From Bdellovibrionales bacterium (GTDB lineage Bacteria > Bdellovibrionota > Bdellovibrionia > Bdellovibrionales > UBA1609): DNA of 64,000 nt. The position numbers were made by a program, and so were the translations under genes. The stretch covers positions 450,420-514,419 of the forward strand of contig OZ220488.1 of assembly GCA_965116155.1 (NCBI GenBank), given 5' to 3'. The notes beneath the pieces were generated by a model. The model was not told the origin of the DNA and ran no database searches. It was given only the letters and a program-made list of their open reading frames with translations. Positions 1 through 24,734 of this stretch are shown in pieces; position 1 is the stretch's first letter, and each line of letters opens with the position of its first letter.

Positions 1-1052
1 ACAGCCAAGATCTTTTTGCGCCCCTCTAAATCGGGCGCCTGCACCATAACCCTGCGGTCAAACCGACCCGGCCTTAACAGAGCAGAGTCCAAAACATCCG
101 GCCTATTGGTGGCCGCGATTAAAATCACGCCCTCGTTGCTTGAAAAACCATCCATCTCCACTAAGAGCTGGTTCAAGGTCTGCTCGCGCTCATCATGACC
201 GCCCCCCATACCCGCACCCCTATGGCGGCCCACAGCGTCGATCTCGTCTACAAAAACCAAACACGGCGCCTGACGCTTGGCCTGCTCAAACAGATCGCGC
301 ACGCGGCTCGCCCCCACACCCACAAACATCTCCACAAAGTCGGAACCCGAAATACTAAAAAACGGCACGCTCGCCTCGCCCGCCACCGCACGCGCCAGCA
401 AGGTTTTGCCCGTACCCGGAGGCCCCACCAAAAGCACCCCTTTAGGTATACGCCCCCCAAGGCGGGTGAACTTTTTGGGAGACTTTAAAAACTGCACAAT
501 TTCTTTAAGCTCCTCCTTAGCCTCGTCCACCCCGGCAACATCTTTGAAGCTGACCTTTTTTTTGTTCTCTACCAAAAGGCGTGCGCGGGATTTGCCAAAA
601 TTCATCGCCCTGCCGCCGCCTATTTGGATCTGACGGAACAAAAAGAAAAACATCGCCGCAATTAAAATCAAAGGCAGCCACTGCAAAAACACAGACCCCA
701 GCATGCTCTCAGCGTACTCGTATTTGGGTACGACGCCGTTTTTTAAAAGCAAAGCCTTAACGCTTTCGCTGCTAATGTCGCCCAAGGTTCTAAATTTAGT
801 GGCGGTTTTGTATTTTTCGCGCACCTTGTCGCTGTCTACAAACTCTCCCCGCAGCTCGCCCACACTGCCCCCGCCCTTATTAGACGAACGCACCGTAACC
901 GACTTAACCAACCCCCCTTCGACCAGAGCATAAAACTCCGGGTAGTCAATGCGGGCCTCCTGCAAACGCCGGGTCTCGTAAACCTGAAACACCACCAGCA
1001 TCAGCACCAAGGCCATAAGCCACAAAAACAAAGTCCTCTGGTTGGATCTCAA
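1..1052 (-). CDS. ftsH: ATP-dependent zinc metalloprotease FtsH, N-terminal ~350 aa (the rest lies beyond the window start)
   Basis: Absent from the ORF track because it is open at the window edge. My reverse translation reads [29 protein letters not shown] (Walker A), [13 protein letters not shown] (Walker B) and [20 protein letters not shown] (SRH), preceded by two hydrophobic TM segments. The TTG at 1052 sits 8 nt after GGGAGG. The ATG at 1016 is the alternative start. Confidence 0.9.
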
Positions 1053-1119
1053 AAAAATAACCTCCCTATCCTATACACATAGCCGGAACTTATAGCCCGA
1101 CACAACTCTATGAGACTCA

Positions 1120-2274
1120 TTATACTGACTCAGGCTCGGGCCGGCCATCCTCAATATAAAGCCTGTCCCCTTTTATAAAAAAGCGCCTTTTTAAAATAGT
1201 GCCGCTCATGTTTTTTTGGGGGCGGTTTATATGCTTCATAAGCTCTAGCAAATGCGTCTGCCCATAACCCTTAAGCCCCCTCGCACGCGCATACTCTGCC
1301 AGCGCCCCTTGCGGGCCCAGTGGGTGCTTGTAAAGCTCTTGAATCTCTAGCTCATCCCCTGCTTGAGCCATGCCATGCTCTTTGCCATGCTCTTTAACCG
1401 CACCTGCCAAAAGCTCCAAGCTCCTTGACAAGGCCTTAGTTGCACCAGGGCGCTTTTGCTCCAGCAGCCCCAGCCAGCGCGTTTTGAGCCACGCCCTAAA
1501 GTCTGTGGCGTTGGTGGGGTCATCCACGTACTTAAGGCGACGCTCAAGGGCATAATGCCCCAACTCCTCACGCCCCACACATAAAAAAGGCCTTAAATAG
1601 GGCGCACGCCACACCTGCATGGCCTTTAGGCCCCCTAAGCCCGTGCCCCGCATCAGCCGCATCAGCCGCGTTAGGAGCAGGTCTTCTGCATGGTGCGCCA
1701 GCGCGATGCTGCACGGCCGCGCCTGCGCCAGACGCCGAAAGCCCGCATGCCGAAACTCCCTTAGGTCTGCCTCACTTAAAAGAGGGCGCTTGGCACCATA
1801 ATGCAGCACCCGACAAGGCAAGCCATAGAGCTTAGCCACGCGCTGCACCAGGCGCTTAGCCTTATTGCGAAAAAGCGCATTCTCGTGCTCTCCATGGTGC
1901 ACATGGACCACCTCAAGCTTAAAACTCAAAGCCCCTTGCAGCACGCGCAGCACCTCGAGCAAGCACATGGAGTCCAAGCCCCCGCTTACGGCCACGCAAA
2001 TTACAGCACTAACGGAATGCTCTGGGATAAGCGCCGCCTCTGGTGCAGCACCCTGCAAGGGGGCCTTTGCACTAGAGGCAAGCGACCCACAGAGCATTCT
2101 GCGGTCTATACGGCTTCTACAAGCCTGTAGCTTTGGGCGTTCTTTAAGCCCAAAGCGTCCAGAACTGCGAAATATATCCCTTAGCAACCGGTAGGTTTTG
2201 TGCTCCAAAGTGTTCCACTGAAGTTTGGCACGGTCCTTGCTCACAAGGGCGACAATAGTACATATAAAAACCAA
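1120..2274 (-). CDS. tilS: tRNA(Ile)-lysidine synthase
   Basis: PP-loop motif VAVSGGLDSMCLL and the overall TilS/MesJ pattern. It lies directly upstream of ftsH, a common arrangement. The longest ORF is probably over-extended; the ATG at 2097 (MLCGSL...) is a more plausible start. Confidence 0.8.
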   Translation of the reverse strand: MVFICTIVALVSKDRAKLQWNTLEHKTYRLLRDIFRSSGRFGLKERPKLQACRSRIDRRMLCGSLASSAKAPLQGAAPEAALIPEHSVSAVICVAVSGGLDSMCLLEVLRVLQGALSFKLEVVHVHHGEHENALFRNKAKRLVQRVAKLYGLPCRVLHYGAKRPLLSEADLREFRHAGFRRLAQARPCSIALAHHAEDLLLTRLMRLMRGTGLGGLKAMQVWRAPYLRPFLCVGREELGHYALERRLKYVDDPTNATDFRAWLKTRWLGLLEQKRPGATKALSRSLELLAGAVKEHGKEHGMAQAGDELEIQELYKHPLGPQGALAEYARARGLKGYGQTHLLELMKHINRPQKNMSGTILKRRFFIKGDRLYIEDGRPEPESV

Positions 2275-2331
2275 ATAGGACCTTTTTTGTGACCTTTTAG
2301 GTCAAAAAACTTACACAAACGGGGCAAAATT

Positions 2332-5300
2332 ATGCATCTTTTTTGTAAAATCCTTTTAAAAATGCAGCTCATTGTGGGAGCTGGTGTAGTTTTTATAGCA
2401 CTCGGGTGCAGTAACTCGAATTTTGTGCAAATCCCGCAAGACGCCCCTTTGCCCACGCCCACGCCACGCCTGCATAGCAGTTGCATTAATAGCAACACCC
2501 TTAGCATGCAGCTGCAATCGCCGCGCGTAAGTGAAGTGGCCTTGAGCTTTGAGCGCTGCCCGCTTGAGACTCCCAAAGACGCCCCCAAGGCGGAGTACCG
2601 CAACCCTATTAGTGACCTCAAATGGTACAAATACTCTCAAGAAAAAGGCCTATCTATAGAGGTGCCGGAGTTCTTTAGAAATTCCTCAGGCAGCATATAT
2701 GTTATATCGCGCACCAAAAATGGCATTTACAGCCACAGCTGCGGTAAGGCAGATTTTGACTTTGACGACACCAAGCCTCTAATAGACTTTACCTACCTGC
2801 CGGAACGGGTGTCTAACACCGAAGACAACATCCGCTGGAAGGTGGCCGACGAGCGCGGCCTAGCACCCGGACAAAGCTACGCCACTCTAAACGGGAAACA
2901 AATTGTTACCCAGTCACCAGACCCTACAGGTGAGCATGATATTTTTCAGCACCATTATATCTACCGCTCACAAAATCAACTGCAACCCGGTACCAATGTA
3001 CTGCGTGTGCATGCAACAGACAACTGCCACAATACCGAGCAATTAAGCTACGAGTGGGTCTACGATCCTAATGCACCCAAAGTGACCTTTACATCTAAAA
3101 AACCTAAAAAAAACGCACTAGAGGTCAACCTAAACTTTAACGTTACCGACCCAGAACCTGGGGCAGGATTAAAAAGTATAGAGTGCTCAAAAGACAACAA
3201 AAAAAGCTTTTCTCCATGCAGCAAGGGAAGCATTAAAACCCTCGCCCAAAACGGCGCCAACTCTGTATGGGTGCGCGCAACCGACAAGGCCGGCAACGTG
3301 GCCCTTAAGAGCTTTGATTGGCAAAGCGATATTGTAGCGCCTACAATAAAGTTCCTCACGCACCCAGCAACCGCTCAACACCAGGGCAAAAACTACAGCG
3401 CCCAAAACCAACCTAGCTTTAGTTACTTAGGCACCGATAACGAAGGCCCCGTGCGCTACCAGTGCGCACTTATTAAAGACAAAACCCCACTCGCACTAAC
3501 AAACTGCCAAAACAACACCCAGCACATGCTGCCTTTGTTGCAAGATGGAGATTATGTGTTTCAAGTTAAAGCCATAGACATGGCTCAAAACGCATCTTTA
3601 CCTGCAGAGTTTGTGTGGAGCGTTGACGCCACAGCACCAAGCTTGCAAATTACAGCCGCGCCCGGCATGAACTCTACAAAGCTACTAGGTGTAGGCGACA
3701 AAGCAGTGGTGCAGTTTGTAGCAATGGATACCGGCACCGGTTTGGCTCGTGTTGAGTGCTTGGTGAACAATAAAACACACGCCTGCCCTTTAAATGCTAG
3801 CCACCAGGGCAAGCTTAGTATCACTAAGCACAAAGAAGGCACCAATACGGTTACTATAAAAGCCACCGACCACGTGGGTAATAGCACGCAAGTAGAGCAC
3901 CAGTATAACTTTAGAAAAGAAAACCCTACCATTTTGTTTGATAGCGGCACGGCACATTTATCGCCACAAAAATCCAGCCATAAACAAAACCCATGGATAG
4001 AGCACGCCCTACGTGCGCTAAACCCCTTGCCACGTGCGTGGGCTGAAGAATCAGGTACCAAGGGTACAGACAGCGCCGATACGAGCAGCGCCGCCAAGGA
4101 GTGCTCGGGCCATGTTTTAGTAGGCCAAGGAGAGCAAGACATTAACTTTACAGTAATACCTTGCGCAGGGCTTGAAGGATCAGACACTCCCGAAGACTGC
4201 CTTGCAGCAAAGGCCATAGAGTGTAGTGTAGATAACAAAACCTACACCAACTGCATGGTAGGCACCAACAAGGGGCAGTTTAAAACCCCTAACTCTAAGA
4301 GCGGTCACTACAAACTTTTTGTTAAAAGCCGTAACCAAGCAGGCAACACCACAGTAAAATGCTACAACTGGCAAGTAGACGCCGATGCTCCGCGCATAGC
4401 GCTTACCGGTGTGCCTGCCTACATAACTCCAGACGAAGCCAATAAGAGCCCAGAAAAAGAACCAGTGAAAGAACCAGGCAAAGAATTTAACTGGAAGCAT
4501 ATCCCCACCAAGCTTTGCCAAGGCGAGGGCTGCGCAAAAGGTTTGCCACTCAGCCAAAAGCCCTTAAGCATTACGGGCGAACAGTACCGGTTTCAGTTTG
4601 AAGGCAAAGACGACCAGGGCGACCCTAGCTTAGCTGACAAAAGCGTACAGTACGAGTGCGTGCTTAAACGCAGCGGACGCGCTGTTGTGGGCCCAAAAGA
4701 GTGCGAGCCCGGCATGTTTTACACCAAACTGATGGAGAGCAGCGAGTACAGCTTTGAGGTCGTAGCCATAGACTCTGTAGGCAATAGATCTAAGCCTGCA
4801 ACGTGGCACTTTATGCTCGACCGCTACGGGCCGACGTTTCATTTTTCTAAAGTTCCAGGCGGCTTGGTTAAAAACAAAAAAAACGAGTGGCAGTTCCGCA
4901 GATGGCCCGTTATAGGTAAAGAAGCAGAAAACACCCTGCTCCTAAAACGTGCGCGCGATAGGTTTGTGCATATTGCAAAATTGGAATGCGCTGAGCTCGA
5001 CTCCTACCCTCACCCGGACACGCCTTGCCATGGGGTGTTCTCTACTGCGGCTCTGGATTTTCCTACAGAATTTGTACCCCTTGTAATGGACTATAAAGAC
5101 GCAAAAGAAAACACCTGCCACACAGCACGCTTAGAGGCAGAGGATATGTTTGGACACAGATCTACCTTGGCCTACAAGTGGTATGTTGATACCTTGGCAC
5201 CAAAGATTGAAATAAACAAACACCCTACTAAAAAAACCAGCCACACAGGGGCCGAGTTTTTAGTAACGGCCTTAGACTTTAACAGTGCCGAAAAGGCCAA

Positions 5301-6687
5301 ATGCCAAAACAACCCCCGCCGCGAACTTACACCTACAGAAACGCAAGAGACCGAGCTGGTGCTTTCGTACTCTTTAGACGGCGCTGCATGGAAGGAATGC
5401 AACTACAAAACCTGCCCCATCAAAGTGCAGGGCCTTAAACGTGGCCAGCACAAATTGAGCCTTAAGGCTCAAGACCGCGCGGGTAATGTTGCAACAAAAG
5501 ACTTTACCTGGGACATTACCAGCACGGGACCCGTGCTTAGCGCTACGCCTGTGTGGAGTGAATCGTCTTTTTGGCAAAAAGCACCCACAGGAGATGAGGG
5601 TAGCTTTTTTCAAAACATACCAGGGGAATTTACAGTTAATCTTAAGCCCATACAGGGCACTAGTATCAAAAACTACAACTGCCTGTGCACGCCTCAAGAT
5701 CCGACCACATGCAAGTACGATGCTAACAAAAGCTCCTTAAGTGTTAAGGTTGCAAATACAAAGCCCGGCACGCACCAATGCACCTTGAAGGCTTATGACA
5801 ACTTAGGAGCTGTAAATAGCACCCAAATAAGCTGGCAGGTGCTGCCTCAGTATCAGGTGTACAAATACAGCTTTAACCACAGGGCTAGCAAAGATATGGA
5901 CGTGCTTGTTGTACTAAAAGACCACAAAGACTTAAAAAAATTAAAACTACAAAAAATATGGCAACACCTTTTGCCGGCTCTTAGCAGCTTGGGTGAGTGG
6001 GAGTTTCGCGTTGCCCTAAGCACTGACACACTTTTGCGCGAGGGGCGGGTGTTTCCTGTAAGTCAGCAGATGGGATCTTTTGTAACGCCTTTTCATACCA
6101 AAAGCTTGAGCCTTGAGGCGTTTAACAAAATCTGGGTGGCTGCAGTCAAACAAAGCCTTAACACGGACTTAACTAAAATAGCGCCGTTGCCAGTGCAAAG
6201 CTTTGCCAGGCCCTACGCGGCCACTAAAGTTGTGCTCGTAGGCGCTAGCAGATTTAGCCCACTAGGAGAGGCAGAGCAGGCCGTGGAAAGCGTGAGTGGG
6301 TTATTTTCTAACCCCCCCCAAATGCACTCGGTGGTTTTGTTGAAAGAAAACATGTGCGCAACAGAAGCACCAGGAGAACTAACATCCTGCTTATCGGATA
6401 AGGCCTCATGTTACGAGAGCTTTGTATGCACGAGCACAGGGCTACAAGCGGTGCTAGAGCGCCTTGGCACAAAAGAGCTAAATGCTGAAAGCCACGCCAA
6501 ATGGCAGTTGCCTTATGCACCTGCCCCAGAGCACCCTAAGTACCAGTTGCAATTGCTGGACCCTCAAGGCAATTTGGTGGATCCATCACTTTACAAGGTG
6601 CAAGGGAGCACAATTTTGTTCCCCGACGAAGACGCCCTCCCCCGTGGCCAGTACACAGTGCAATATGTTAGAACGCTAGAGCAATAG
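2332..6687 (+). CDS. Giant surface lipoprotein with about 8 Cys-paired Ig-like repeats and a degenerate vWA-like C-terminal region
   Basis: 1451-aa ORF. The N-terminus MHLFCKILLKMQLIVGAGVVFIALG-CSN is a signal peptide with a lipobox-like ALGC. It has tandem ~90-110-aa modules with the pattern x-C-x-[LV]-[DN]..C..G-x-[YH]-x-[FL]-x-V-[KR]-A-x-D-x-[AV]-G-N..W-x-[VS]-D-x-x-[AG]-P. The C-terminal region aligns by eye with the vWA part of ORF 30907-32385 but lacks the DxSxS motif. Confidence 0.75.
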   Translation: MHLFCKILLKMQLIVGAGVVFIALGCSNSNFVQIPQDAPLPTPTPRLHSSCINSNTLSMQLQSPRVSEVALSFERCPLETPKDAPKAEYRNPISDLKWYKYSQEKGLSIEVPEFFRNSSGSIYVISRTKNGIYSHSCGKADFDFDDTKPLIDFTYLPERVSNTEDNIRWKVADERGLAPGQSYATLNGKQIVTQSPDPTGEHDIFQHHYIYRSQNQLQPGTNVLRVHATDNCHNTEQLSYEWVYDPNAPKVTFTSKKPKKNALEVNLNFNVTDPEPGAGLKSIECSKDNKKSFSPCSKGSIKTLAQNGANSVWVRATDKAGNVALKSFDWQSDIVAPTIKFLTHPATAQHQGKNYSAQNQPSFSYLGTDNEGPVRYQCALIKDKTPLALTNCQNNTQHMLPLLQDGDYVFQVKAIDMAQNASLPAEFVWSVDATAPSLQITAAPGMNSTKLLGVGDKAVVQFVAMDTGTGLARVECLVNNKTHACPLNASHQGKLSITKHKEGTNTVTIKATDHVGNSTQVEHQYNFRKENPTILFDSGTAHLSPQKSSHKQNPWIEHALRALNPLPRAWAEESGTKGTDSADTSSAAKECSGHVLVGQGEQDINFTVIPCAGLEGSDTPEDCLAAKAIECSVDNKTYTNCMVGTNKGQFKTPNSKSGHYKLFVKSRNQAGNTTVKCYNWQVDADAPRIALTGVPAYITPDEANKSPEKEPVKEPGKEFNWKHIPTKLCQGEGCAKGLPLSQKPLSITGEQYRFQFEGKDDQGDPSLADKSVQYECVLKRSGRAVVGPKECEPGMFYTKLMESSEYSFEVVAIDSVGNRSKPATWHFMLDRYGPTFHFSKVPGGLVKNKKNEWQFRRWPVIGKEAENTLLLKRARDRFVHIAKLECAELDSYPHPDTPCHGVFSTAALDFPTEFVPLVMDYKDAKENTCHTARLEAEDMFGHRSTLAYKWYVDTLAPKIEINKHPTKKTSHTGAEFLVTALDFNSAEKAKCQNNPRRELTPTETQETELVLSYSLDGAAWKECNYKTCPIKVQGLKRGQHKLSLKAQDRAGNVATKDFTWDITSTGPVLSATPVWSESSFWQKAPTGDEGSFFQNIPGEFTVNLKPIQGTSIKNYNCLCTPQDPTTCKYDANKSSLSVKVANTKPGTHQCTLKAYDNLGAVNSTQISWQVLPQYQVYKYSFNHRASKDMDVLVVLKDHKDLKKLKLQKIWQHLLPALSSLGEWEFRVALSTDTLLREGRVFPVSQQMGSFVTPFHTKSLSLEAFNKIWVAAVKQSLNTDLTKIAPLPVQSFARPYAATKVVLVGASRFSPLGEAEQAVESVSGLFSNPPQMHSVVLLKENMCATEAPGELTSCLSDKASCYESFVCTSTGLQAVLERLGTKELNAESHAKWQLPYAPAPEHPKYQLQLLDPQGNLVDPSLYKVQGSTILFPDEDALPRGQYTVQYVRTLEQ

Positions 6688-6776
6688 TGTACTCCCAATT
6701 TTTCGTCTTACCCCCATGTCCCACTGGCAGGGCCCAAAGGGCCCGGATCCCAGTGGGACCAACAACAGTGCGTTTA
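6668..6776 (+). repeat. Intergenic repeat family: A-like box (TTAGAACGCTAG, read through in-frame at the end of the lipoprotein gene) plus a module D GC-rich hairpin
   Basis: TTAGAACGCTAG at 6668-6679 differs by 1 nt from the TTAGAGCGCTAG box seen at 6 other loci. GTCCCACTGG..CCAGTGGGAC (6718-6727 / 6750-6759) encloses GGGCCC-AAA-GGGCCC and is the same module found at 13007-13048 and, inverted, at about 45797-45846. Confidence 0.75.
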
Positions 6777-6848
6777 CGCCACGCGTGGGAGCTTTTACAA
6801 GCACAGGTGTGTTACACCTGTGCTTGTAAAAGCTCCCACGCGTGGCGT
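6776..6848. terminator. 35-bp perfect hairpin straddling the E1-beta stop codon (candidate bidirectional terminator)
   Basis: The left arm (6776-6810) is the exact reverse complement of the right arm (6814-6848). The loop is GTT. The stop codon TAA (6812-6814, minus strand) lies at the loop, and the right arm encodes the last 11 codons. Confidence 0.7.
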
Positions 6849-7879
6849 TTGATGTCTGCCACCTGAGGGACTGTGGCTTTTTCTAAATCCGGGTGCAAAC
6901 CAATGCCAGGAGTGTTTAAGCCAGCAAGCACTTTGGGCGGCGCATGCAGAGTATAAAACAACTCCCTTGTAGCCCTATAAGCCAAATGCTCTGCAAAGTT
7001 TGTAACCTCGGTGTCTTCGTTCACAAACAAAACCTTGCCGCATTTTTTAATGCTCTGTTTTAAACTTTGCCAATCATAAGGATACAAACAAAACAAATCT
7101 ATCAGCTCAATTCTTGTGCCAGGGTGCTCGCGCTCTAGCTCTAAAATCGCCTCCTCGCACATCAGCACATAACGGCCATAGCTCACCACGCAAAGGTCCT
7201 TGCCAGGACGCACCACCCTTAAGGACGGCAGCTTTATATCCATTAGCTCTAAAGACTCCGGCCACTTAGGGCGCCAGTTTTTACGCCCTACACCTATGGG
7301 AGCATCGATGGCTTTTTTGAGCGCTTTTTCCTCAGCAGGCTCCCCTGGCAACAAAACCCGCGACTTAACTCTAAGCAAGCTTTTAGGTTTAAGATACAAA
7401 ACTGGGTTAGGGTTTTTAATGGCACTTAACATAAGCGCATAGGCCTCTAACGGGCGCGACGGCATCACCACCACCCAACCTGGCATACGCGTGGCCCAAG
7501 CATCAAAGCTATGACTATGATAAATCGAGCCATGTATCCCCGCCCCCACAGGAGTCATTAACACCAGCGGCAAATTGTATTGCCCCCTACAAGCCCAAGA
7601 GGTGTTGCCGACCATTTTAAGCAAATCTATGGTGTTAAATATGTAATCGCAAAATTGCACCTCAGCTACCACGCGTTGACCCGCCATAGCCACGCCCATA
7701 GCAGCACCCACAATGCCGCGCTCATCCAAAGGAGTGTTCCACGCAGTAGCCAAACCTTGGGTCACCGTAAACACTCCCCCCAAGGGCGGCCCTACGTCTT
7801 GCCCAAAAATCTCGCGCACCTCTAAGTGCTTCTCGCCCATATGCAAAGCCATCCGAATGGCCTGTGCCATATTAGCCAT
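6812..7879 (-). CDS. 2-oxoacid (pyruvate/branched-chain/acetoin-type) dehydrogenase E1 component, beta subunit
   Basis: The E1-beta pattern IFGQDVGPPLGGVFTVTQGL..TPLDERGIVGAAMGVAMAG..EVQFCDY is present, with transketolase-like C-terminal half. The ATG at 7879 (MANMAQAIR...) overlaps the alpha-subunit stop as TAATG. The longest ORF, extending to 7930, is probably too long. Confidence 0.8.
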   Translation of the reverse strand: MANMAQAIRMALHMGEKHLEVREIFGQDVGPPLGGVFTVTQGLATAWNTPLDERGIVGAAMGVAMAGQRVVAEVQFCDYIFNTIDLLKMVGNTSWACRGQYNLPLVLMTPVGAGIHGSIYHSHSFDAWATRMPGWVVVMPSRPLEAYALMLSAIKNPNPVLYLKPKSLLRVKSRVLLPGEPAEEKALKKAIDAPIGVGRKNWRPKWPESLELMDIKLPSLRVVRPGKDLCVVSYGRYVLMCEEAILELEREHPGTRIELIDLFCLYPYDWQSLKQSIKKCGKVLFVNEDTEVTNFAEHLAYRATRELFYTLHAPPKVLAGLNTPGIGLHPDLEKATVPQVADIKRHAWELLQAQV

Positions 7880-8901
7880 TAAAACTCTCTCCAATCTGCC
7901 TGAGTAGCATCCGCATAGGTGTGGTCCCACACGGTGCTCGGTTGAGGTGTGGGCTCCTTTCGCGCCTGAAGCTGCGCATTAATGCACTCTTGCTCTAGCT
8001 CTTTTGTTAAAACCAGGACTTCGGTTTTTTTGAGCCAATTTTTTTTAAATAATTCCTCCTCAAACTCTTTTACACAATCCACCTGGGGCCCGCCCTCCCA
8101 ATTCGCACCCGTTGCAGAAGAGTGGCCATACAGGCGCGACACTGCGGCCTCTACTAGCATAGGCTTGCGCTTTTGGCGCACGTACTCTAGGGCCTCTTTC
8201 AAAACAAAATACGCCCGCGCGGGGCAGTTGGCATCAAAGCTTACGCACCTAATGCCAAAAGCCTTGGCGCGATCCGCAATGCGCACCTCCGAATGCTGGG
8301 TGCTGTAATGGGTCGAAATACCCCACTGGTTATTTTGCACCGTAATTAAAAGCGGCAGCTCCTCTTTAGGGCGCGATGCCCAAATGAGGCTCGACGCAAA
8401 ATCCCCCTCCGCCGTGCCCGCATCACCTCCCGTAATAATGCTCACCCCACGCGCACGGGCGCGCATTTGTGCCAAAGCTGTGCCAATAGCCACACTGTAC
8501 TGCACACCAATAGGAGAGGTAATCGGCGCCACATTCCATTTGGGCACACAAAAATGCCCTGCAAAGTTTCGCCCCCCAGTATGAGGATCTGTGGCGCGGC
8601 ACATCATAAGGCGCACCGCATCAATCACAGGCAATCCCATTGCCACAAGGCTTGAAGAGGCTCTGTAGTGCAAGTGCAACCAGTCATGGCCCAGCCCACG
8701 GCCTTTGTTGACCAAAAGTCCTAAAGGGACTCCAAAGGCCTCTTCGCCCGGGCCGCCGATCCAAAAAAAGCCCTCCCCCACTTTGTATATTTGAATGAGG
8801 CGTTTTTCTAAAATGCGCGCCTTTAGCATGAGGCGGTGCATTTTAAGGGCCAGGGCTTTGCCGAGTTTTGTGCAATCGCTCACCGGCAGTATTTTACTCA
8901 C
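7879..8901 (-). CDS. 2-oxoacid dehydrogenase E1 component, alpha subunit (TPP-binding)
   Basis: It has the TPP motif region SIITGGDAGTAEGDFASSLIWA..VQNNQWGIST and an E1-alpha-like N-terminus (GFFWIGGPGEEA). GTG start. It is translationally coupled to the beta subunit. Confidence 0.8.
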   Translation of the reverse strand: MSKILPVSDCTKLGKALALKMHRLMLKARILEKRLIQIYKVGEGFFWIGGPGEEAFGVPLGLLVNKGRGLGHDWLHLHYRASSSLVAMGLPVIDAVRLMMCRATDPHTGGRNFAGHFCVPKWNVAPITSPIGVQYSVAIGTALAQMRARARGVSIITGGDAGTAEGDFASSLIWASRPKEELPLLITVQNNQWGISTHYSTQHSEVRIADRAKAFGIRCVSFDANCPARAYFVLKEALEYVRQKRKPMLVEAAVSRLYGHSSATGANWEGGPQVDCVKEFEEELFKKNWLKKTEVLVLTKELEQECINAQLQARKEPTPQPSTVWDHTYADATQADWREF

Positions 8902-9008
8902 CCTATGAGGGGCGCGTCAAAATCCCTTAGCGCGCGTGACAGATATGCAACATTGCGTTACTAGATGTGTGTTTTTTAGATGGTTTTCAGCAGTTAGGAG
9001 TTTTTAAT

Positions 9009-11234
9009 ATGCGTGTATTGGGTGCATACTTTTTGTATGGGTGTGGTGCTCTGTTTTGGTGCTCTGTTTTGGCGCTGTGTTTGGGCGCAAGCTTTGTGGC
9101 CGCGGAGAGCGGCTCTGTAGGTACCAGTGGCCCTCAAAAGGAGTGTACGGCTTTGCTTAAGGGTTCTGTATTTTTAAAAAAACTCCCCCACCGGGCGTTG
9201 GCTTTTGACAAAATCGGTCCTGAGGATATTTACGCCCCATTAGATGCTACTATTAAAAAAGCAACAGCTGATGTTAAGGCCATAGCCGAGTCCCGTGAGG
9301 CGCCTAGTTTTAAAAACACCGTAGAGGCTTTAGAGCATGTGGATGCCGACATGACCCGCGTTTACGGGGCCATGGACGTGCTAAGCATACATAAAATGAG
9401 CCCCGCGCAGACGAAGCTTGAAAAGCACTTTGTACCTAAGATGGTGGAATTTAGCAGCAAGATTCTATCTAACAAAAAGCTTTTTGCCCGTATTAAGCAT
9501 GTATACGAGCAACACGCTTATAACAATACACCCCGTGGTCTCAGTGTAGAGCAAAAAAGGCTTCTTAATGAGACTTACAATAAATTTGCCAAAAACGGCG
9601 CAGGCCTTAGCGAAAATAAGCAAAAACGTTTTCGTAAAATTTCGCAAGAGCTGGGTGTTTTGAGCATTCAGTTTAAAGAAAATGTCCGGCAGAGCATTGC
9701 GGATTTTAATTTGTATTTGAGTGAGGGCGAGATCGCAGGATTGCCTGAGGATTTAAAAGCCGCCGCCCGCAAAAAGGCCCAAGTGGCTGGCAGTAAAGAT
9801 AAGTACATTATTGGTATAGATTATTCTGACTACATGCAGGCTATGAAGTACCTAGATAGCTCGGAGGCGCGGCGCAAGTTATGGGACGCCAAAGGCAAGG
9901 TGGCATCCCAGGGCTTGTTTGATAACAGCAAGATTGTGGCTAGAATTTTGGAGCTACGCAACCAAAAGGCTAAGCTGTTGGGTTATGCGTCGCATGCTCC
10001 AAGGGCAATGGAGGAGCGCATGGCAAAAACTCCCCAAAGGGTGTGGGAGTTTTTGCAGACCCTTTACGATGCCATATTGCCTTACGCTGAAAAAGAGTGG
10101 CAAGAGCTGCAGGCTTTTGCCAAAGCCCAAGGGTACAAGGGCTCTTTACAGGCGTGGGATATTACCTACTACCACACCAAGCTCAAAGAGCGCCAGCAGG
10201 GTTTTGATGTAAAACTGTTACGCAACTACCTTAATGTGGGCAGCACGTTAAAGGCTTTGTTTAAGGTGGCAAAGCGCTTGTATGGGTTGGAGTTTAAGTT
10301 AAAGCCGCATGCTGCGTATCCGGTGTGGGATAAAGAGATGCAAGTGTATGAGGTGTCGCGCAAAGGGGATTTTGTGGGGCTGTTGTATTTGGATCTATTC
10401 TCGCGCCCGCAAGAGAAAAAAGAAGGCGCCTGGATGCATGATTTTTTAACCCAAGGGCAGTGGAAGCGCAGGCTGCAGCGCCCGCATGTTTTGGTGGCGA
10501 CTAACTTCACGCCTCAAGAAGAGTTAGCCTTTAAGGACCGTCTTATAGAGTGGTACGACGTTTATGTGTTGTTTCATGAGTTTGGGCATGCTTTGCATGG
10601 GCTTTTGGCGCAGGGGCGGTACCGATCGCTTAGTGGCACTAATGTGGCGCTGGATTTGGTGGAGCTGCCTTCGCAGGTTTTAGAGAACTGGATATACGAG
10701 CCTGAGGTGGCGCAGTTGCTGGGTCGGCATTACAAAAGCAAAAAACCCCTGCCTGAGGCTTGGATAAAAAAGATCCGCGCCAACAAAAACCTAGACACCA
10801 GCCCTATGCAAAAGCTAAGGCAGGTTCGTATGTCTATGCTGGATATGGCATGGCATGACGGGCCCTATCAGCCCAAGAGCTGGAAGGATTTGGATGTTAT
10901 AGGTTTTGAGAAGGAGTTTTTGGCAAAATTTCCTGGTGTGGTGCCGCAGCACCCTGCTGCCAAAAAGCACAGTACGACTTTAAGTTTTAGCCATTTGTTT
11001 TCTAGCATGTACGATGCGGGTTATTATAGTTATCTTTGGTCTGAGATGCTGGTCGCGGGTGCTTGGCCGGTGTTTGAGCGGGGGGGATTTTTGTCGCGCA
11101 AGATGGGCCGCCGGTTTGAGGAGTGTATTTTGTCTAAAGGCAACACTCGGGAGGCGGAGGTTTTGTTTGCGGATTTTTGCCCGCACCAACCTACCGCCCA
11201 AGACCTGGTTAGATTTTGGGAGTTTAAAGACTAG
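9009..11234 (+). CDS. Secreted M3-family zinc metallopeptidase (peptidyl-dipeptidase Dcp / oligopeptidase A-like)
   Basis: It carries the HEFGHALH zinc motif, and its length and overall pattern fit the M3 family. The ATG at 9009 follows AGGAG by about 8 nt and gives a signal-peptide-like N-terminus (..VLALCLGASFVAAES). The longest ORF starts at 8967. Confidence 0.8.
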   Translation: MRVLGAYFLYGCGALFWCSVLALCLGASFVAAESGSVGTSGPQKECTALLKGSVFLKKLPHRALAFDKIGPEDIYAPLDATIKKATADVKAIAESREAPSFKNTVEALEHVDADMTRVYGAMDVLSIHKMSPAQTKLEKHFVPKMVEFSSKILSNKKLFARIKHVYEQHAYNNTPRGLSVEQKRLLNETYNKFAKNGAGLSENKQKRFRKISQELGVLSIQFKENVRQSIADFNLYLSEGEIAGLPEDLKAAARKKAQVAGSKDKYIIGIDYSDYMQAMKYLDSSEARRKLWDAKGKVASQGLFDNSKIVARILELRNQKAKLLGYASHAPRAMEERMAKTPQRVWEFLQTLYDAILPYAEKEWQELQAFAKAQGYKGSLQAWDITYYHTKLKERQQGFDVKLLRNYLNVGSTLKALFKVAKRLYGLEFKLKPHAAYPVWDKEMQVYEVSRKGDFVGLLYLDLFSRPQEKKEGAWMHDFLTQGQWKRRLQRPHVLVATNFTPQEELAFKDRLIEWYDVYVLFHEFGHALHGLLAQGRYRSLSGTNVALDLVELPSQVLENWIYEPEVAQLLGRHYKSKKPLPEAWIKKIRANKNLDTSPMQKLRQVRMSMLDMAWHDGPYQPKSWKDLDVIGFEKEFLAKFPGVVPQHPAAKKHSTTLSFSHLFSSMYDAGYYSYLWSEMLVAGAWPVFERGGFLSRKMGRRFEECILSKGNTREAEVLFADFCPHQPTAQDLVRFWEFKD

Positions 11235-11431
11235 CCCAAACACTTTGGCCAGAAAGCGCAGGCCCTTGCTAGCCCCATAGGGGTGTGGCAAGGCGGGTCA
11301 ACCCCTTATAAATTGGACAGTTTTTAGTGAACTTTTTGGAGGATAGAAGGTCAGGGGGCCCGCCGCTGTGGGGAGGGTATAGGCTTAGAAATTTACCTGC
11401 CCTTATTTCCTCAAGCCCTCAAGCAAGGCGC

Positions 11432-11993
11432 GTTGCTTAACCACAAAGAAAGTGCTAAAAAGCAACAAAAAAATATACTGCGAAATGACTAAAAACGAGG
11501 GATGCCGCCCTATAAGGAACCCTACAAGGAAAAGCGTAAATGAAAAAACTTTTGTGTGCGTTTTTGATTTTGTTTTTGTGCTCGTATGCTTGGGCAGGTA
11601 AAGGCATACGCGGTGACTATTGGGGCAAGCCCAAAGCAGCTAGTGATCCAATAAACTTGCCGGATTCTGTTAAAAATATGCTGGATGCAGAGGTTCTGAC
11701 AGGCGCTATGCTGCCTCTTTTTTGGGCCATTAAACACAAAGATTACGCTCTTGTAAAAACTTTGCTAAACCACAAAATAGATATCAATGCTCAAGATGCC
11801 CAAGGCCGCACGGCTCTTATGCAGGCGGTGCAAATGCCTAACTATGCAGATATTGAGACTTTGTTGGGCCATGCCGGCGTTGATATTAACCAAACAGACG
11901 ACCATGGCAAAACGGCTCTTTTTTGGGCTGCGCAAAGGGGCAGATTGCACTTTATAAAAACTTTATTAAATAGTGGCATTGATGTTAACGCCA
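11432..11993 (+). repeat. Segmental duplication, copy 1 (leader, signal peptide and first three ANK repeats), paralogous to 49435-49995
   Basis: By manual alignment, 11613-11993 and about 49612-49995 differ at about 8 positions in ~380 bp. The upstream ~110 bp and the signal-peptide region are more diverged but clearly homologous. Confidence 0.85.
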
Positions 11994-12679
11994 GGGGCGA
12001 ATATGGCAATACAGCTCTTATTTGGGCGGCGTATAACGGGCATGAAGAGTCTGTGCAGGCTCTTTTAGCTCATAAAGATATTGATGTTAACGCCAAGGAC
12101 GATGCTGGCGATACAGCGCTTATTTTGGCTGCGAGCAGAGGGAATGAAGAATCTGTACAAGCTCTTTTGGCTCATGAAGATATTGATGTTAATGCTAAGG
12201 GCGAATGTGGCTATACAGCGCTTAGTTGGGCTGCGCGTAACAGGCATGAAGAGTCTGTGCAGGCTCTTTTAGAACATAAAGATATTGATGTTAACGCCAA
12301 GGACGGTGATGGCAATACAGCGCTTATTTGGTCTGCGCGCAGAGGGCATGAAGAGTCTGTGCAGGCTCTTTTAGCTCATAAAGATATTGATGTTAATGCC
12401 AAGGACGGTGATGGCAATACAGCGCTTATTTGGGCTGCGTATGAAGGGCATGAAGAGTCTGTGCAAGCTCTTTTAGCGCGTAAAGATACTGATGTTAACG
12501 CCAGGGGCGAATATGGCTATACAGCGCTTTTTTGGGCTGCGCATGACGGGCGTGAAGCGCTTGTAGGGATTTTGCGAGAGCATGGGGCTATTAATGCTGG
12601 CACAATAGAAAAACCTGGCGCTGTGAACGTGCTTTTACAGCGTGGCAAATCACTCTGCACAAAGTTATTACAAAGTTAG
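11540..12679 (+). CDS. Secreted ankyrin-repeat protein (9 ANK repeats)
   Basis: It has the Sec signal peptide MKKLLCAFLILFLCSYAWA-GKG. Repeats follow of the form G-x-TAL-x-x-AA-x-x-GHEESVQALLAHKDIDVNAKxxx. The stop codon TAG (12677-12679) lies inside repeat module A. Confidence 0.9.
   Translation: MKKLLCAFLILFLCSYAWAGKGIRGDYWGKPKAASDPINLPDSVKNMLDAEVLTGAMLPLFWAIKHKDYALVKTLLNHKIDINAQDAQGRTALMQAVQMPNYADIETLLGHAGVDINQTDDHGKTALFWAAQRGRLHFIKTLLNSGIDVNARGEYGNTALIWAAYNGHEESVQALLAHKDIDVNAKDDAGDTALILAASRGNEESVQALLAHEDIDVNAKGECGYTALSWAARNRHEESVQALLEHKDIDVNAKDGDGNTALIWSARRGHEESVQALLAHKDIDVNAKDGDGNTALIWAAYEGHEESVQALLARKDTDVNARGEYGYTALFWAAHDGREALVGILREHGAINAGTIEKPGAVNVLLQRGKSLCTKLLQS
12005..12600 (+). repeat. 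In-frame 102-bp (34-aa) near-identical tandem ANK repeat array within ank1
   Basis: Units start at 12005, 12107, 12209, 12311, 12413 and 12515. The core CATGAAGAGTCTGTGCAGGCTCTTTTAGCTCATAAAGATATTGATGTTAA is almost invariant between units. Confidence 0.85.
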
Positions 12680-12870
12680 AGCGCTAGGAAAATGCCATGG
12701 GATTAAGCGCATCTTCCTGATAGCACCTAAAGGTGCGGCCATCAGGAAGATAAGCGTCCCACATGGCATTTTCCGACCTATAAGGCATCTATGGCCCTGC
12801 GGGATTGTGCGATCGTTAGGCACAAGGCGTCCAGACTTGCGTCAAAGTCCCGTACGTTGAGCAAACAAAA
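12676..12870 (+). repeat. Modular palindromic intergenic repeat, full A-B-C unit
   Basis: Module A is TTAGAGCGCTAG at 12676-12687. Module B is a long hairpin at 12687-12774 (GGAAAATGCCATGGGA..TCCCACATGGCATTTTCC, with inner stem TCTTCCTGAT/ATCAGGAAGA). Module C runs from CCTATAAGG.. through GCGTCAAAGTCCCGTACGTTGAGCAAACAAAA. Confidence 0.85.
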
Positions 12871-13062
12871 ATTAGAGCGCTAGCGAAATTCTCTGGGATA
12901 AGCGCGTGAGCATAAAGGTGTGTCAGTCTTCACAACAAGGTAACATTGCTGGCGCTTTTATGCTTACGCCTTTAGGCGAACGCACCACATCCTGCGTCTC
13001 ACCCATGTCCCACTGGCAGGCGCCAAAGGCGCCGGATACCAGTGGGACCAACAGCAGCGCGT
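12871..13062 (+). repeat. Second repeat unit: module A, left arm of module B, inverted pair of module E, and module D hairpin
   Basis: ATTAGAGCGCTAGCGAAATTCTCTGGGATAAGCGCG starts at 12871. GCGTGAGCATAAAGGTG (12904-12920) is paired with GCGCTTTTATGCTTACGC (12952-12969). Module D GTCCCACTGG..CCAGTGGGAC lies at 13007-13048. Confidence 0.8.
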
Positions 13063-13114
13063 AACATAAAAGCCACCCCTAATGCCTAAAGGCATTAGGG
13101 GTGGCTTTTATGTT
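13063..13114. terminator. 24-bp hairpin straddling the secF stop codon (candidate bidirectional terminator)
   Basis: CATAAAAGCCACCCCTAATGCC (13065-13086), loop TAAA, GGCATTAGGGGTGGCTTTTATG (13091-13112), plus two further A:T pairs. The secF stop (13079-13081) is inside the left arm. The right arm and loop encode IKATPNAFRH. Confidence 0.7.
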
Positions 13115-14041
13115 GTCGAGCCAGATGACCAATGGAGAAGCAACAAAGATAGACGAATACGTGCCCACAACAACGCCAATACCCAAAGTAAAAGCAAAAT
13201 CCCTAATGACACCTTGGGCAAAAAAGTACATCGCAAACACCGCTAGCAGAGTCGTAACAGATGTCAGCACCGTGCGCGTAAGCACATCGTTCAAAGCCCT
13301 GTTCACCACACCACTAAAGCCACCCTTTGCAGCCTCAACCCCACGCGCACCAAAAGCCGACACGTTCTCCCTAATACGATCAAAAGTCACAATCGTATCA
13401 TTGAGCGAATAACCTATAATCGTTAAAATCGCCGCCATAGTCTGCACATTCACCTCACGCGCAAACAAAGCAAAAATCCCGAGCGTAATAATACTGTCAT
13501 GGAACAAACACACCACAGCACCAGGTGCGTACTTGTAATCAAACCTCAAGCCCACATAAATCAAAACCAAAAGCAAACTATAAAAAGCCGCCAGCAAACC
13601 ACGCCGCTTTAGGTCCTCCCCTATCTGCGGGCCCACAAAATCCACCTTGCGCACCTGAGCCCCCTTAAGAGGCGCAAAAAATTTTGCAAAATCCACCTTG
13701 GCATCCGCACCCCTATGCTCCACTCGAATCAAAAACTCCCTCCCCTCAGCACCCAAAGACTGCACCTGAGCTTTTTTGTAATCTGCTTGTTCTAAAAACT
13801 CCCTCACATCACCAGCGGTGGTTTCAGCATCCTCAAACAACAGCTGCACCTGAGTGCCTCCAGAAAAATCGATCCCATAGTTAAACCCCCGCAACCCAAT
13901 ACCCAACAGCGACCCTAGCACCAAAACCGCAGACACCACCCCACACACGCCCGACAGCGCTATAAAATTAAACCCTAAACCGCCTCCCCGACGGGCAGGC
14001 CCACTTTGGCTCTTTTTTATGCCACCATCCTTAGCCATCAC
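13079..14041 (-). CDS. secF: Protein translocase subunit SecF
   Basis: SecF-type membrane protein (..GIDFSGGTQVQL.., ..IIGYSLNDTIVTFDRIRE..) located immediately downstream of secD. Confidence 0.9.
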   Translation of the reverse strand: MMAKDGGIKKSQSGPARRGGGLGFNFIALSGVCGVVSAVLVLGSLLGIGLRGFNYGIDFSGGTQVQLLFEDAETTAGDVREFLEQADYKKAQVQSLGAEGREFLIRVEHRGADAKVDFAKFFAPLKGAQVRKVDFVGPQIGEDLKRRGLLAAFYSLLLVLIYVGLRFDYKYAPGAVVCLFHDSIITLGIFALFAREVNVQTMAAILTIIGYSLNDTIVTFDRIRENVSAFGARGVEAAKGGFSGVVNRALNDVLTRTVLTSVTTLLAVFAMYFFAQGVIRDFAFTLGIGVVVGTYSSIFVASPLVIWLDNIKATPNAFRH

Positions 14042-14064
14042 CTGTCTCTCTCCCCATACAACAC

Positions 14065-15816
14065 TTAAACACGCACTAGGTTTTTAAATTTAAACTTGTG
14101 TACCAAGCTCTCAATAATAGTGCGCGACACAAACACCGCCGTAAACACAGAGGTCGCAATTCCACAAAGCAACGTCACTGCAAAACCCCTAATAGGCCCC
14201 GTGCCATAATACATCAAAACCAAGCACACTAAAGCTGTTGTAATATTGGCATCTAAAATAGCAGAAAACGCCTGCCCAAAGCCATCGGCCACGGCACCTC
14301 CCACACCCGCACCCTTACGCAGCTCCTCTTTGATGCGCTCAAACACAATAACATTAGCATCCACCGCCATACCCACCGTTAAAATAATCCCCGCCACCCC
14401 AGGCAAAGTTAGCGTAGCTCCCAACGAAGACAAAATGCCAAAAATAAACAGCACATTTAGCACCAAAGCCAAATCAGCCACCAAGCCCACCGCACCGTAA
14501 TAAAACAGCATAAACACCAGCACCAAAACCATACCCACAACCCCAGCCAGTTCGCCCGCAGCAATGGCCTCCGCACCCAGAGTTGGCCCCACTGTGCGCT
14601 CCTCCAATTGACTCAAATCCGCCGGCAACGAACCCGACCGCAAAGCACTCGCTATAAACTGAGCCTCTTTGCGCGTTTGCTCATAATTAGACGCCCCCAG
14701 GGTAATGCGTGCCCTTTGGGAGTCGATTTTTTCCCTCACAGAAGGCGCCGACTTGACCACACCATCTAATACAATGGCCATAAAACCAGGCGCGATCGCC
14801 TCCGTTAGCTCTGCAAACAATCGCCTGCCCTCAGGAGTAAAACGAAAATTCACCTCGTATCGACCAAACTCATCCGGAGCCGCAATAGCATCCTCTAAAT
14901 GCTCTCCACCTAGCTGGTTGTTTACTTCAATCAGGTGCGGCACGCGGCCCGTTAGCATATCCTGAGCTTTGTCGTTTTTCTCAAACAGCACCCGCGTATT
15001 GAGCGGCAATTTAGGCTTTAAATATTGGTTGAGCTGCTCAACATAAGCCCTATAACCACCCCCTTTAGTCTCTTTAAACTCCACCCCCTTAGAAGCAGCC
15101 TCTTCCATCCACTCCGCGAGCTGCTCCGGCTCTACCTCTTTAGACACTGGACGAAAATTCAGCCTCGCCGCCCTATTAACCAGCTCCTTAGCCCCAGCGG
15201 TATCCTTAATGCCAGGCAGTTGCACCAAAATCCTGTCATTCCCCTGGGCCGCAATACTCGGCTCCGCCACCCCAAACTCATCAATACGCGCCCGCACCAC
15301 CTCTATAGCCTGATCCACCACCTGCGCCCTATAAGCATCCAGAGTGCTCGGTACAAAACCCACTTTAAACGCCCTGCCGCCACCCGCGTCAGCAGACCCC
15401 TCCACAAGCTCTAAAACCTGCAAACGCACACCGAAGTAATCCCGTGACTCTATATGCTCGCGCAAAGCGGGCTCATCATCGCCAGCACCAAAGCCCACCA
15501 GCAGCTGAAGCGCGTTTTGAGGATCAACCCTCAACTCCCCATGGCTGAGTTTAGCAAAATCAAAGCTGTCCTTGAGCTCTGTTAAAAGGCGCATGGTTTT
15601 TTCAACCATAATGGCGCGCGTGTCCACACCCATCACCAGCTGCAAACCTCCTTGAATATCCAAGCCCTTGGTAACGCGGTTTTTGAGCATAAAAGAATTC
15701 CTATCGCGCTCCGTGTCCAGAGCTTTATCTGCAAAGTTGGGCACCACCCCCACTACCGCTAAGGCTACAAAACCCACCACCACTAGCCAGCGCATTTTTA
15801 AACTCTCAATCAACAT
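14065..15816 (-). CDS. secD: Protein translocase subunit SecD
   Basis: SecD pattern (..GLDIQGGLQLVM.., ..GILTVGMAVDANVIVFERIKEE..) in the order yajC-secD-secF. Confidence 0.9.
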   Translation of the reverse strand: MLIESLKMRWLVVVGFVALAVVGVVPNFADKALDTERDRNSFMLKNRVTKGLDIQGGLQLVMGVDTRAIMVEKTMRLLTELKDSFDFAKLSHGELRVDPQNALQLLVGFGAGDDEPALREHIESRDYFGVRLQVLELVEGSADAGGGRAFKVGFVPSTLDAYRAQVVDQAIEVVRARIDEFGVAEPSIAAQGNDRILVQLPGIKDTAGAKELVNRAARLNFRPVSKEVEPEQLAEWMEEAASKGVEFKETKGGGYRAYVEQLNQYLKPKLPLNTRVLFEKNDKAQDMLTGRVPHLIEVNNQLGGEHLEDAIAAPDEFGRYEVNFRFTPEGRRLFAELTEAIAPGFMAIVLDGVVKSAPSVREKIDSQRARITLGASNYEQTRKEAQFIASALRSGSLPADLSQLEERTVGPTLGAEAIAAGELAGVVGMVLVLVFMLFYYGAVGLVADLALVLNVLFIFGILSSLGATLTLPGVAGIILTVGMAVDANVIVFERIKEELRKGAGVGGAVADGFGQAFSAILDANITTALVCLVLMYYGTGPIRGFAVTLLCGIATSVFTAVFVSRTIIESLVHKFKFKNLVRV

Positions 15817-15838
15817 GGCTCTTTACCCTTTTTTGCCC

Positions 15839-16219
15839 CTATGTACCCTTTGCTGTATCGCGCTCTAAGGCCGATGAGATCTGATTCCTTAGCACCCTAA
15901 TCCGCGTGCCCTGCGACACCTCCAAAACCACAAAGCCCTTGCTTAAACCTGTGATCTTGCCAAAAATGCCCCCGCTCGTTAAAACCTCGTCCCCTTCTTT
16001 TAACTTTTGCAAAAAGCTCTGGTGCTCCTTATGCCGACGGCGCTGAGGACGTATAAGCAAAAAGTAAAAAATCACAAAAATAAAAACAAACGGCACCAGC
16101 TGCTCTAAAGCACTTGGTGTCGGCGGCGCATCCTGCGCCCAAGCCCGCGCGGCAAAAACTAATACTCCTAAAAACAAAGCACCCATAACTACCAAACGCA
16201 ATAACACACTAGGCCCCAC
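15839..16219 (-). CDS. yajC: Preprotein translocase subunit YajC
   Basis: Conserved YajC core FYFLLIRPQRRRHKEHQSFLQKLKEGDEVLTSGGIFGKITGL. The longest ORF starts at a GTG abutting the repeat region. The ATG at 16186 is an alternative start. Confidence 0.85.
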   Translation of the reverse strand: MGPSVLLRLVVMGALFLGVLVFAARAWAQDAPPTPSALEQLVPFVFIFVIFYFLLIRPQRRRHKEHQSFLQKLKEGDEVLTSGGIFGKITGLSKGFVVLEVSQGTRIRVLRNQISSALERDTAKGT

Positions 16220-18840: not shown

Positions 18841-18876
18841 ACTGCTTCAACAGACTCTGCCACAAAAGACAGCTAC

Positions 18877-24538: not shown

Positions 24539-24734
24539 AGCGCTAGCCGCATGCTCTGGTCCAAGCGCCGTCTGCCTGATAGTCCCCACAGGGGACGATC
24601 ATCAGGTAGACAAGCGCCCCACAGAGCATGGGGCGGCCTATAAGGCTTCTATGAGCCTGTAGCCTTGGGTGTTCGGTAGACCCAAGGCGGCCACACTCCC
24701 GTCAAAGCCCCGTGCGATGGGCAAACACAAGTTA
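24535..24734 (+). repeat. Modular palindromic intergenic repeat, cleanest A-B-C unit, spanning stop codon to stop codon
   Basis: Module A is TTAGAGCGCTAGC at 24535-24547. Module B is a long hairpin at about 24550-24630. Module C lies at 24635-24731 (GGCCTATAAGG..GCCTGTAGCCTTGGGTG..ACCCAAGG..CCGTCAAAGCCCCGTGCGATGGGCAAACACAAG) and directly abuts the dacB stop at 24732-24734. Confidence 0.9.

Follow-up and report, generated by a model that had tools for sequence, protein, structure and literature searches.

Five operon-terminal genes in the window, i.e., the whole 64-kb stretch of DNA analyzed here, have their stop codons enclosed in inverted repeats of 18-35 bp. In our reading, these operon-end stem-loops may well have arisen by inverted duplication, through template switching or snap-back priming, at junctions between gene ends and REP-like elements. 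The evidence base is this one window and five hairpins (n = 5), with no close outgroup or second strain. All five stop-containing hairpins of the original prediction are present, and each holds a stop codon as claimed.

The five host genes all lie on the minus strand, and their identities were confirmed by Pfam. They are the 2-oxoacid dehydrogenase gene E1-beta (6812-7930), the terminal gene of an E1 alpha/beta operon; secF (13079-14041), which ends yajC-secD-secF; the secretin gene pilQ (32867-35125), last in pilM-N-O-P-Q; a gspE/pilB-type ATPase gene, hereafter gspE (40649-42328), at the end of a gspC-D-E cluster; and a fused TRAP permease gene of the DctQM type (45860-47986), terminal in a TAXI-receptor/permease pair. 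Each hairpin closes an operon (5/5), and three are located between convergent genes.

Four of the hairpins are perfect, and their loops are short and non-palindromic. Read on the minus strand like its gene, the E1-beta hairpin (6776-6848) has a 35-bp stem (6776-6810/6814-6848) and a 3-nt loop, with the TAA (6812-6814) at the loop. The proximal arm encodes ..RHAWELLQAQV plus the first stop base, and the distal arm is its inverted copy. The secF hairpin (13063-13114, minus strand) has a 25-bp stem (13063-13087/13090-13114), not 24 bp as first reported, and a 2-nt loop; the reading frame passes through the proximal arm and over the loop, and takes in 6 nt of the distal arm before it ends at the TAG at 13079-13081. 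The secF stop is thus inside the distal (left) arm, so that the frame crosses the loop. Similarly, the TRAP permease frame passes the 4-nt loop of its 18-bp stem (45850-45867/45872-45889, spanning 45850-45889 on the minus strand) and ends at a TAG in the distal arm (45860-45862). The AT-rich pilQ hairpin (32838-32876, minus strand) also has an 18-bp stem (32838-32855/32859-32876), with a 3-nt loop; its TAA (32867-32869) is within the proximal arm, and therefore just 7 coding nt belong to the stem. For the E1-beta, pilQ and TRAP hairpins the earlier coordinates were retained. The gspE hairpin (40615-40672, minus strand) was likewise found where expected, but its stem (40615-40638/40649-40672) is 24 bp with two G.T pairs instead of 17 bp with one, and its loop is 10 nt. 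On the mRNA strand, these two plus-strand G.T pairs read A.C and C.A. The gspE TAA (40649-40651) forms the innermost 3 bp of this stem, and the proximal arm encodes the native ANTQLDA before the stop. In all five, the palindrome center is no more than 10 nt from the stop. Predicted RNA folding energies of the five hairpins range from -22 to -73 kcal/mol, with z-scores from -6 to -15 on either strand; the E1-beta hairpin has a predicted energy of -73 kcal/mol and a z-score of -14.

Chance was excluded as the origin of such stems, as had been claimed: the longest perfect stem in 20 shuffles of the window was 11 bp, which is also the maximum in 66 kb of sequence from relatives. We recorded the best perfect stem within 45 nt on either side of each of the 42 stop codons in the window, and the lengths were bimodal, with four genes at 18-35 bp and the rest at 7 bp or less. 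The latter values are like those at random or start-codon positions. The gspE hairpin scores just 7 on this perfect-stem measure because of the two mismatches in its 24-bp stem. These stems are far longer than any other gene-end stem, in the window or in relatives. The five hairpins thus form a class of their own, which favors an origin in discrete events over graded selection. A consensus terminator scan of positions 1-20000 of the window gave 35 hits against 31 expected, i.e., no enrichment.

These length distributions bear on whether the hairpins began as intrinsic terminators of the ordinary kind and gained their stem length stepwise, by point mutation under selection for pairing and with no copying involved. 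The operon-end position would agree with such an origin, as would the classical A-tract/GC-stem/T-tract shape of the secF and TRAP hairpins and weak sub-threshold Rfam matches to the terminator ends of sRNA models. However, other stop codons in the window show no intermediates of 8-17 bp, the terminators of relatives are 9-11 bp only, the E1-beta and gspE hairpins have no U tract, and a 35/35 match to constrained coding sequence would be an implausible product of stepwise change. Taken together, we find stepwise lengthening very improbable.

The closest homologues, apart from the source's own, are 68% identical for E1-beta and 60-62% identical for SecF. Overall, nearest-homologue identity is about 60-69% at the protein level, and several of these sequences are labelled Bdellovibrionales MAGs. 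At this distance, where gene order also differs, no hairpin follows E1-beta or secF in the relatives' loci, and the longest perfect stem in their 66 kb is 11 bp. Downstream of E1-beta, the relatives have a co-directional gene, and secF is followed directly by recJ. Since the relatives have neither the hairpins nor the same neighbors, the hairpins appear to be at lineage-specific junctions. In two of the relatives recJ comes immediately after secF (L012, 9268-11001; L013, 11026-12744). Positions 12680-13079 of the window have repeats and a convergent ankyrin gene beside secF, and recJ is absent there. If the loss of recJ is genome-wide, it could bear on the frequency of template switching.

The question of which arm is original can be addressed for E1-beta and GspE. 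The E1-beta tail, ..DIKRHAWELLQAQV or ..ADIKRHAWELLQAQV before the stop, fits the homologue pattern ..DIKxxAxxLLxExP, and 60 homologues align with its C-terminus through to the last position. The GspE tail ..EEVLANT aligns with ..EEVLART of Thermus PilF (..GITTIEEVLANT in GspE and ..GITTLEEVLART in PilF). The distal arms are the reverse complement of these coding arms at 35/35 positions in E1-beta and 22/24 in gspE. As both coding arms are native C-termini, the non-coding arm must be the inverted copy and not a product of point mutation; judged from the sequence, a 35/35 match to constrained coding DNA would not plausibly be assembled by point mutation. The native coding arms, together with relatives that have no such hairpins, support a copying event. 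The proposal that coding ends are copied in inverted orientation therefore holds for these two genes, and it fails as a uniform rule, as the pilQ arm is partly the tail of a repeat element.

The secF and TRAP hairpins are homologous to each other: 22/28 nt are identical (ACAAYNTAAAAGCMAMCCCTAAYRCCTT), both are read in the same frame, and the TAG in the two distal arms is the same. The resulting protein tails, NIKATPNAFRH in SecF and NLKANPNTLRC in the TRAP permease, share the 11-residue pattern N[IL]KA[TN]PN[AT][FL]R[HC] followed by the stop. The local alignment has p of about 7e-4 per pair, and the two ends rank at the top of 820 stop-aligned gene-end pairs, with 26/39 matches vs a mean of 10. 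Similarity between the gspE and TRAP hairpins is borderline, and the remaining hairpin pairs are not significantly similar. The prediction that the stems are gene-specific and not copies of a repeat is thus contradicted for secF and TRAP. In the window, this type has two copies, and no second copies of the E1-beta, pilQ and gspE hairpins were found. The SecF tail lies past the end of its Pfam domain, and both tails are located beyond the final conserved domain or membrane-spanning segment, where homologues vary, so that either protein would tolerate a replaced tail.

We used the secF/TRAP paralogues as a surrogate for a mirroring test between orthologues. Of the 18 pairs in the stem common to both, 14 are the same, 4 differ in both arms and none differs in a single arm. 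Such mirrored differences would also be expected from independent palindromes made after the coding arms had diverged, or from regeneration from one arm. In the gspE hairpin, two transitions remain uncorrected and unmirrored, so homogenization is not continuous, and the idea of a continuous correction of the arms is not supported.

At pilQ, the outer 7-10 nt or so of the distal arm are homologous to the tail ends (..TTGAGCAAACACAAgTTA) of a repeat family that we call type I, and the tail of one such element (..CGTCAAAGCCCCTTGCATTGAGCAA, 32791-32837, plus strand) is flush with the hairpin. The last codons of PilQ may therefore be the copy. The direction of copying is not uniform, and from the sequence it may run from element to gene at this locus.

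The homology between the secF and TRAP ends raises the possibility that a mobile palindromic terminator element (REP-, MITE- or RPE-like) inserted at gene 3' ends and brought its own last codons and stop, without any copying of the gene. Such an element would account for two unrelated membrane proteins that have a common tail and TAG, for the 22/28-nt identity, for the top rank among 820 gene-end pairs, and for the type-I sequence in the outer distal arm at pilQ. Additionally, the terminal GCGT of the module D copy at secF (module D is a palindromic repeat described below), taken together with the secF arm, ranks 6th of 32,000 windows in similarity to the K module. Type-I heads supply the TAG of three other genes, and REPs are known to lie flush with open reading frames and to donate stop codons (PMC3733652). 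As a general cause, however, this explanation is refuted by E1-beta and gspE, where the coding arms are native, conserved and without another copy in the window. It also leaves unexplained why the secF and TRAP hairpins are each perfect despite four differing pairs, and just two copies were seen. We therefore regard insertion of a mobile terminator as conceivable but unlikely.

Intergenic DNA in the window consists almost wholly of nested, REP-like palindromic modules. The type-I family (about 190 nt, itself made of nested palindromic modules, no Rfam match) occupies most intergenic spaces, with elements at 12676-12866, 24535-24731, 32382-32837, 62276-62470 and 2001-2190, and in reverse complement at 16220-16667 and about 50560-50860. 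Type-I heads (TTAGAGCGCTAG; TTAGAGYGCTAG) begin at the stop of the co-oriented upstream gene and supply the TAG of three plus-strand genes (stops at 12677, 24536 and 32383). The type-I tail (..GTCAAAGCCCC..TTGAGCAAACACAAgTTA) gives the TAA to a convergent PBP4-like gene (24732). Type-I elements carry hairpins with a GTAG tag, and module D starts with CGTC.

One module, GTCTNCCTGATAG...CCATCAGGNAGAC, is found at 12711-12751, 16470-16511, 24571-24610, 32559-32598 and 45755-45795, and its variable position covaries as T-A, A-T, C-G and, twice, G.T (a wobble pair on the sense strand of the element). This covariation hints at selection as RNA structures in 3' UTRs. The K-module halves GCGTAAGCATAAAAGTG and CACTTTTATGCTTACGC (16221-16237 and 16540-16556) enclose other modules and are perfectly complementary over 17 nt, even though they are 302 nt apart; this is a further indication that the genome maintains the match between the arms of its palindromes. 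Two further long inverted repeats, both with large interiors, start with TAAAAGCGCCAG, as the K-module halves do. The first (58866-58975) begins 2 nt after a ferredoxin stop and has an outer stem of about 20 bp around a 65-nt inner hairpin, and the second (50653-50758, in the 50531-50860 spacer) has 23-nt arms that are 96% complementary and 60 nt apart.

Module D is associated with the hairpins. Exactly four copies are present in the window, and all four end within 0-2 nt of a distal hairpin arm. Copy 1 (6704-6773, plus strand), which runs from CGTC through an imperfect palindrome to CAGTGCGT, ends 2 nt before the E1-beta arm. Copy 2 (12995-13062, plus strand) is flush with the secF distal arm. 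Copy 4 (40556-40613, plus strand) is diverged, about 77% identical to copy 2, and ends 1 nt before the gspE arm. Copy 5 (45800-45849, minus strand) is reversed and truncated, and its CGTC end is flush with the TRAP distal arm. The end that adjoins the hairpin is thus GCGT in three of the copies and CGTC in one. The original prediction had counted three of the five hairpins next to D; the diverged copy at 40556-40613 brings this to four. The most diverged copy adjoins the sole decayed hairpin, that of gspE, and pilQ has none. A search of a collection of genome contigs with the D motif gave just 8 unrelated chance matches, and two scans of metagenomes, one with the type-I head and one with D, gave no match. 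Copy 4 also overlaps the predicted GTG start (40574) of a reading frame with a glutamate-synthase domain (39003-40574); as Pfam matches this frame only from residue 171 onward, translation probably starts downstream of the predicted site.

This association could mean that the hairpins are produced by D itself. In that case a RAYT/HUH-type enzyme or hairpin cleavage would nick or break the DNA at either terminus of D and free the 3' end of the gene, which would snap back, prime its own synthesis, copy 18-35 nt and be resealed to D. That each of the four copies abuts a distal arm (0-2 nt), by one end of D or the other, would fit this, as would the minimal non-palindromic loops and the pairing of the most diverged copy with the only decayed hairpin. 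D also shares its initial CGTC with the REPs that bear this tag, and type-I has the GTAG-tagged hairpins (PMC3733652). However, no transposase or RAYT gene was found in the window, pilQ has a hairpin without D, the association has n = 4, and D might simply target the feet of hairpins. Published CGTC-tagged REPs have an 8-9-bp stem beside the tag, which D does not fit, and the secF/TRAP homology is not explained by this model alone. We consider manufacture by D in this way distinctly unlikely. In a more general form, a nick or a replication stall at D would let the flanking 3' end snap back, copy its last 18-35 nt and rejoin D, so that D manufactures bespoke hairpins; this we consider improbable as well, if slightly less so. 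If true, a selfish repeat would build a gene-specific terminator or 3' protector from host codons, or overwrite a protein tail with repeat sequence, and this would be a new route from mobile palindromes to regulatory structure and new protein C-termini.

The order of events might also be reversed, as D could insert preferentially beside pre-existing hairpins. Insertion of D into a once-longer palindrome was rejected, since the sequence on the far side of D at E1-beta, secF and TRAP does not contain the missing remainder of the arm. Neither microhomology nor a target-site duplication was found consistently at the junctions between D and the arms, where a GCGTTT direct repeat occurs at E1-beta only. 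A single motif behind all five hairpins was rejected as well: TAAAAGC is present in four, but is a common feature of the genome (49 copies).

Template switching or snap-back priming, the reading we prefer, would proceed as follows. An inverted duplication would form where the last codons of an operon meet a palindromic repeat, and would span this junction; the repeat is D in four cases and a type-I tail in one. During replication, the nascent strand would switch template, or the 3' end of a nascent or nicked strand would snap back and prime itself with a minimal loop, and one side of the junction would be written as reverse complement onto the other. Where the non-coding side is overwritten, as it may have been at E1-beta and GspE, the arm would become an exact inverted copy of native codons. 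Where the end of the reading frame is overwritten by, or fused to, the repeat palindrome, the protein would gain a new short tail and a palindrome-derived stop, as proposed for SecF, TRAP and probably PilQ. Later rounds of template switching or snap-back could re-homogenize the arms, and the very stable stem-loop (predicted at -22 to -73 kcal/mol) would be kept as the 3' hairpin of the operon. A snap-back or template switch fits the perfect arms, the very short loops that are not palindromic, the sharp outer limits of the arms at the repeat end, the centers at gene ends, and the use of either side as template; we infer both the mechanism and its link to D. Template switching is known to create perfect inverted repeats and hairpins and to maintain or homogenize them (PMC8794818, PMC5941160), and perfect inverted repeats peak just past bacterial stop codons (PMC13155455).

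Palindromic duplication of flanking sequence is also the hallmark of the footprints that hAT- and RAG-type transposons leave behind. The hairpins resemble such excision footprints, in which covalently closed hairpins give P-nucleotide-like palindromes, in that they are palindromes of flanking sequence; as the contig is probably a metagenome assembly, assembly artefacts come into question as well. However, opening at the tip would give palindromes without a spacer, whereas the loops here are non-palindromic and 2-10 nt long, and no such transposase was found in the window. Five independent in-frame cases with intact reading frames in a 1.6-Mb contig are also unlike chimeric reads. Footprints or artefacts are hardly credible as the source of the hairpins.

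At the RNA level, we infer that the hairpins possibly act as terminators, as protectors against 3' exonucleases or as barriers to convergent transcription. The secF hairpin has an A tract, a 16-bp GC stem and a T tract, with UUUUAUGUU on both strands, and the TRAP hairpin has the tracts UUUUAAAUU and UUUCGUCUC; both have the classical shape of a bidirectional terminator. The pilQ hairpin is T-rich within the stem. The E1-beta (AAACGC/UUGAUG) and gspE hairpins have no U tract, and canonical intrinsic termination is therefore doubtful for both. The suggestion that A/T runs at the stem ends allow termination in both directions consequently applies to secF and TRAP, loosely to pilQ, and not to E1-beta or gspE. 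The RNase III gene rnc is present in the window (18085-18840). Perfect dsRNA stems of 25-35 bp around stop codons would be ideal targets of this enzyme, whose cuts could damage the mRNA. Rfam gave no match in the window at the gathering threshold, and at relaxed settings positions 12600-13150 gave generic hairpin matches. Neither plasmid similarity nor tRNAs were found.

Other gene ends in the window also share sequence. In five genes that are not related to one another, a TTTAAAGGAC-like sequence just before the stop encodes a terminal [LF]K[DT]: those for an M3 peptidase, a 1193-aa protein, a TAXI receptor, a VKOR-DsbA protein and a 344-aa protein (11223-11234, 30834-30845, 48070-48084, 50860-50874 and 58677-58688). 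This represents either a shared nucleotide motif at gene ends or a repeat-derived terminus. The motif T[TA]AA[AG]G is modestly enriched near stops (10/42 vs a background of 13%). The window also contains two paralogous ankyrin-repeat genes (11504-12685 and 49506-50483), with 5' regions that are 95% identical and 102-bp tandem units, and encodes a third large ankyrin protein (54595-56331). For a Bdellovibrio-like genome of 1.6 Mb such cargo is unusual, and it suggests a host-associated lifestyle.

If template switching or snap-back is the right explanation, inverted duplication can be far larger than the usual corrections of a few bases, with single events of up to 35 nt. These events would take place at a defined class of sites, the junctions of gene ends with REP-like elements, and would produce tailor-made hairpins and proteins with a replaced C-terminus. 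That the association with one repeat module is complete offers a testable handle on a joint origin of palindromic repeats and terminator-like structures. For the annotation of such genomes, it matters that housekeeping genes can take their last codons and stops from a repeat, the tail shared by SecF and TRAP being an example.

The hairpins can be compared with several known systems. Integron attC sites (59-be), which are imperfect palindromes of variable sequence, likewise start at or overlap the stop of the preceding gene, but core and inverse-core sites (GTTRRRY/RYYYAAC) were not evident in the arms when checked by eye. An attC origin was rejected, as the window's Pfam matches include no integrase, the arms are perfect and without bulges, and the host operons are housekeeping operons. 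With REP, BIME and REPIN sequences and Rickettsia RPEs, the repeat modules of the window share a palindromic structure, a position flush with the 3' ends of reading frames, where the neighboring genes are convergent or co-directional, and the donation of stops (PMC3733652), and the secF/TRAP pair behaves as a small palindromic repeat family overlapping such ends. The E1-beta and gspE hairpins differ from such families in being single-copy in the window and made of native gene sequence. The hairpins carry no GTAG or CGTC tag, the D stem starts about 14 nt past CGTC, and Pfam identified no Y1/RAYT transposase among the genes of the window.

With intrinsic terminators that overlap stop codons, the hairpins share their form as stable operon-end stem-loops, several of them between convergent genes. 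Intrinsic terminators have a GC-rich stem-loop (3-8-nt loop) past the transcription unit, and the place of all five hairpins at the last gene of an operon agrees with this. The secF and TRAP hairpins, where an A tract and a T tract flank a GC-rich stem of 15-16 bp, resemble bidirectional terminators in particular. The stems are 18-35 bp and mostly perfect vs the usual 5-14 bp, however, two of them have no U tract, they are built from, or supply, the last codons of the gene, and the other gene ends of the window show no terminators of ordinary size.

Template switching and quasi-palindrome correction have reportedly been described by Ripley in 1982, by Dutra and Lovett, and by Loytynoja and Goldman. 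The hairpins have the expected features: the reverse complement of adjacent sequence across a short spacer, exact for E1-beta (35/35) and nearly so for gspE (22/24), and mirrored changes in the arms of secF and TRAP (four both-sided, none one-sided), with two unmirrored changes in gspE. They differ from published cases, mostly 5-15 bp or in rRNA and miRNA stems, in reaching 35 bp, in being placed on stop codons and in lying beside one repeat module. Inverted repeats made by template switching, gene ends flanked by REPs, and terminator hairpins are each known, and the hairpins described here are a variant of these phenomena.
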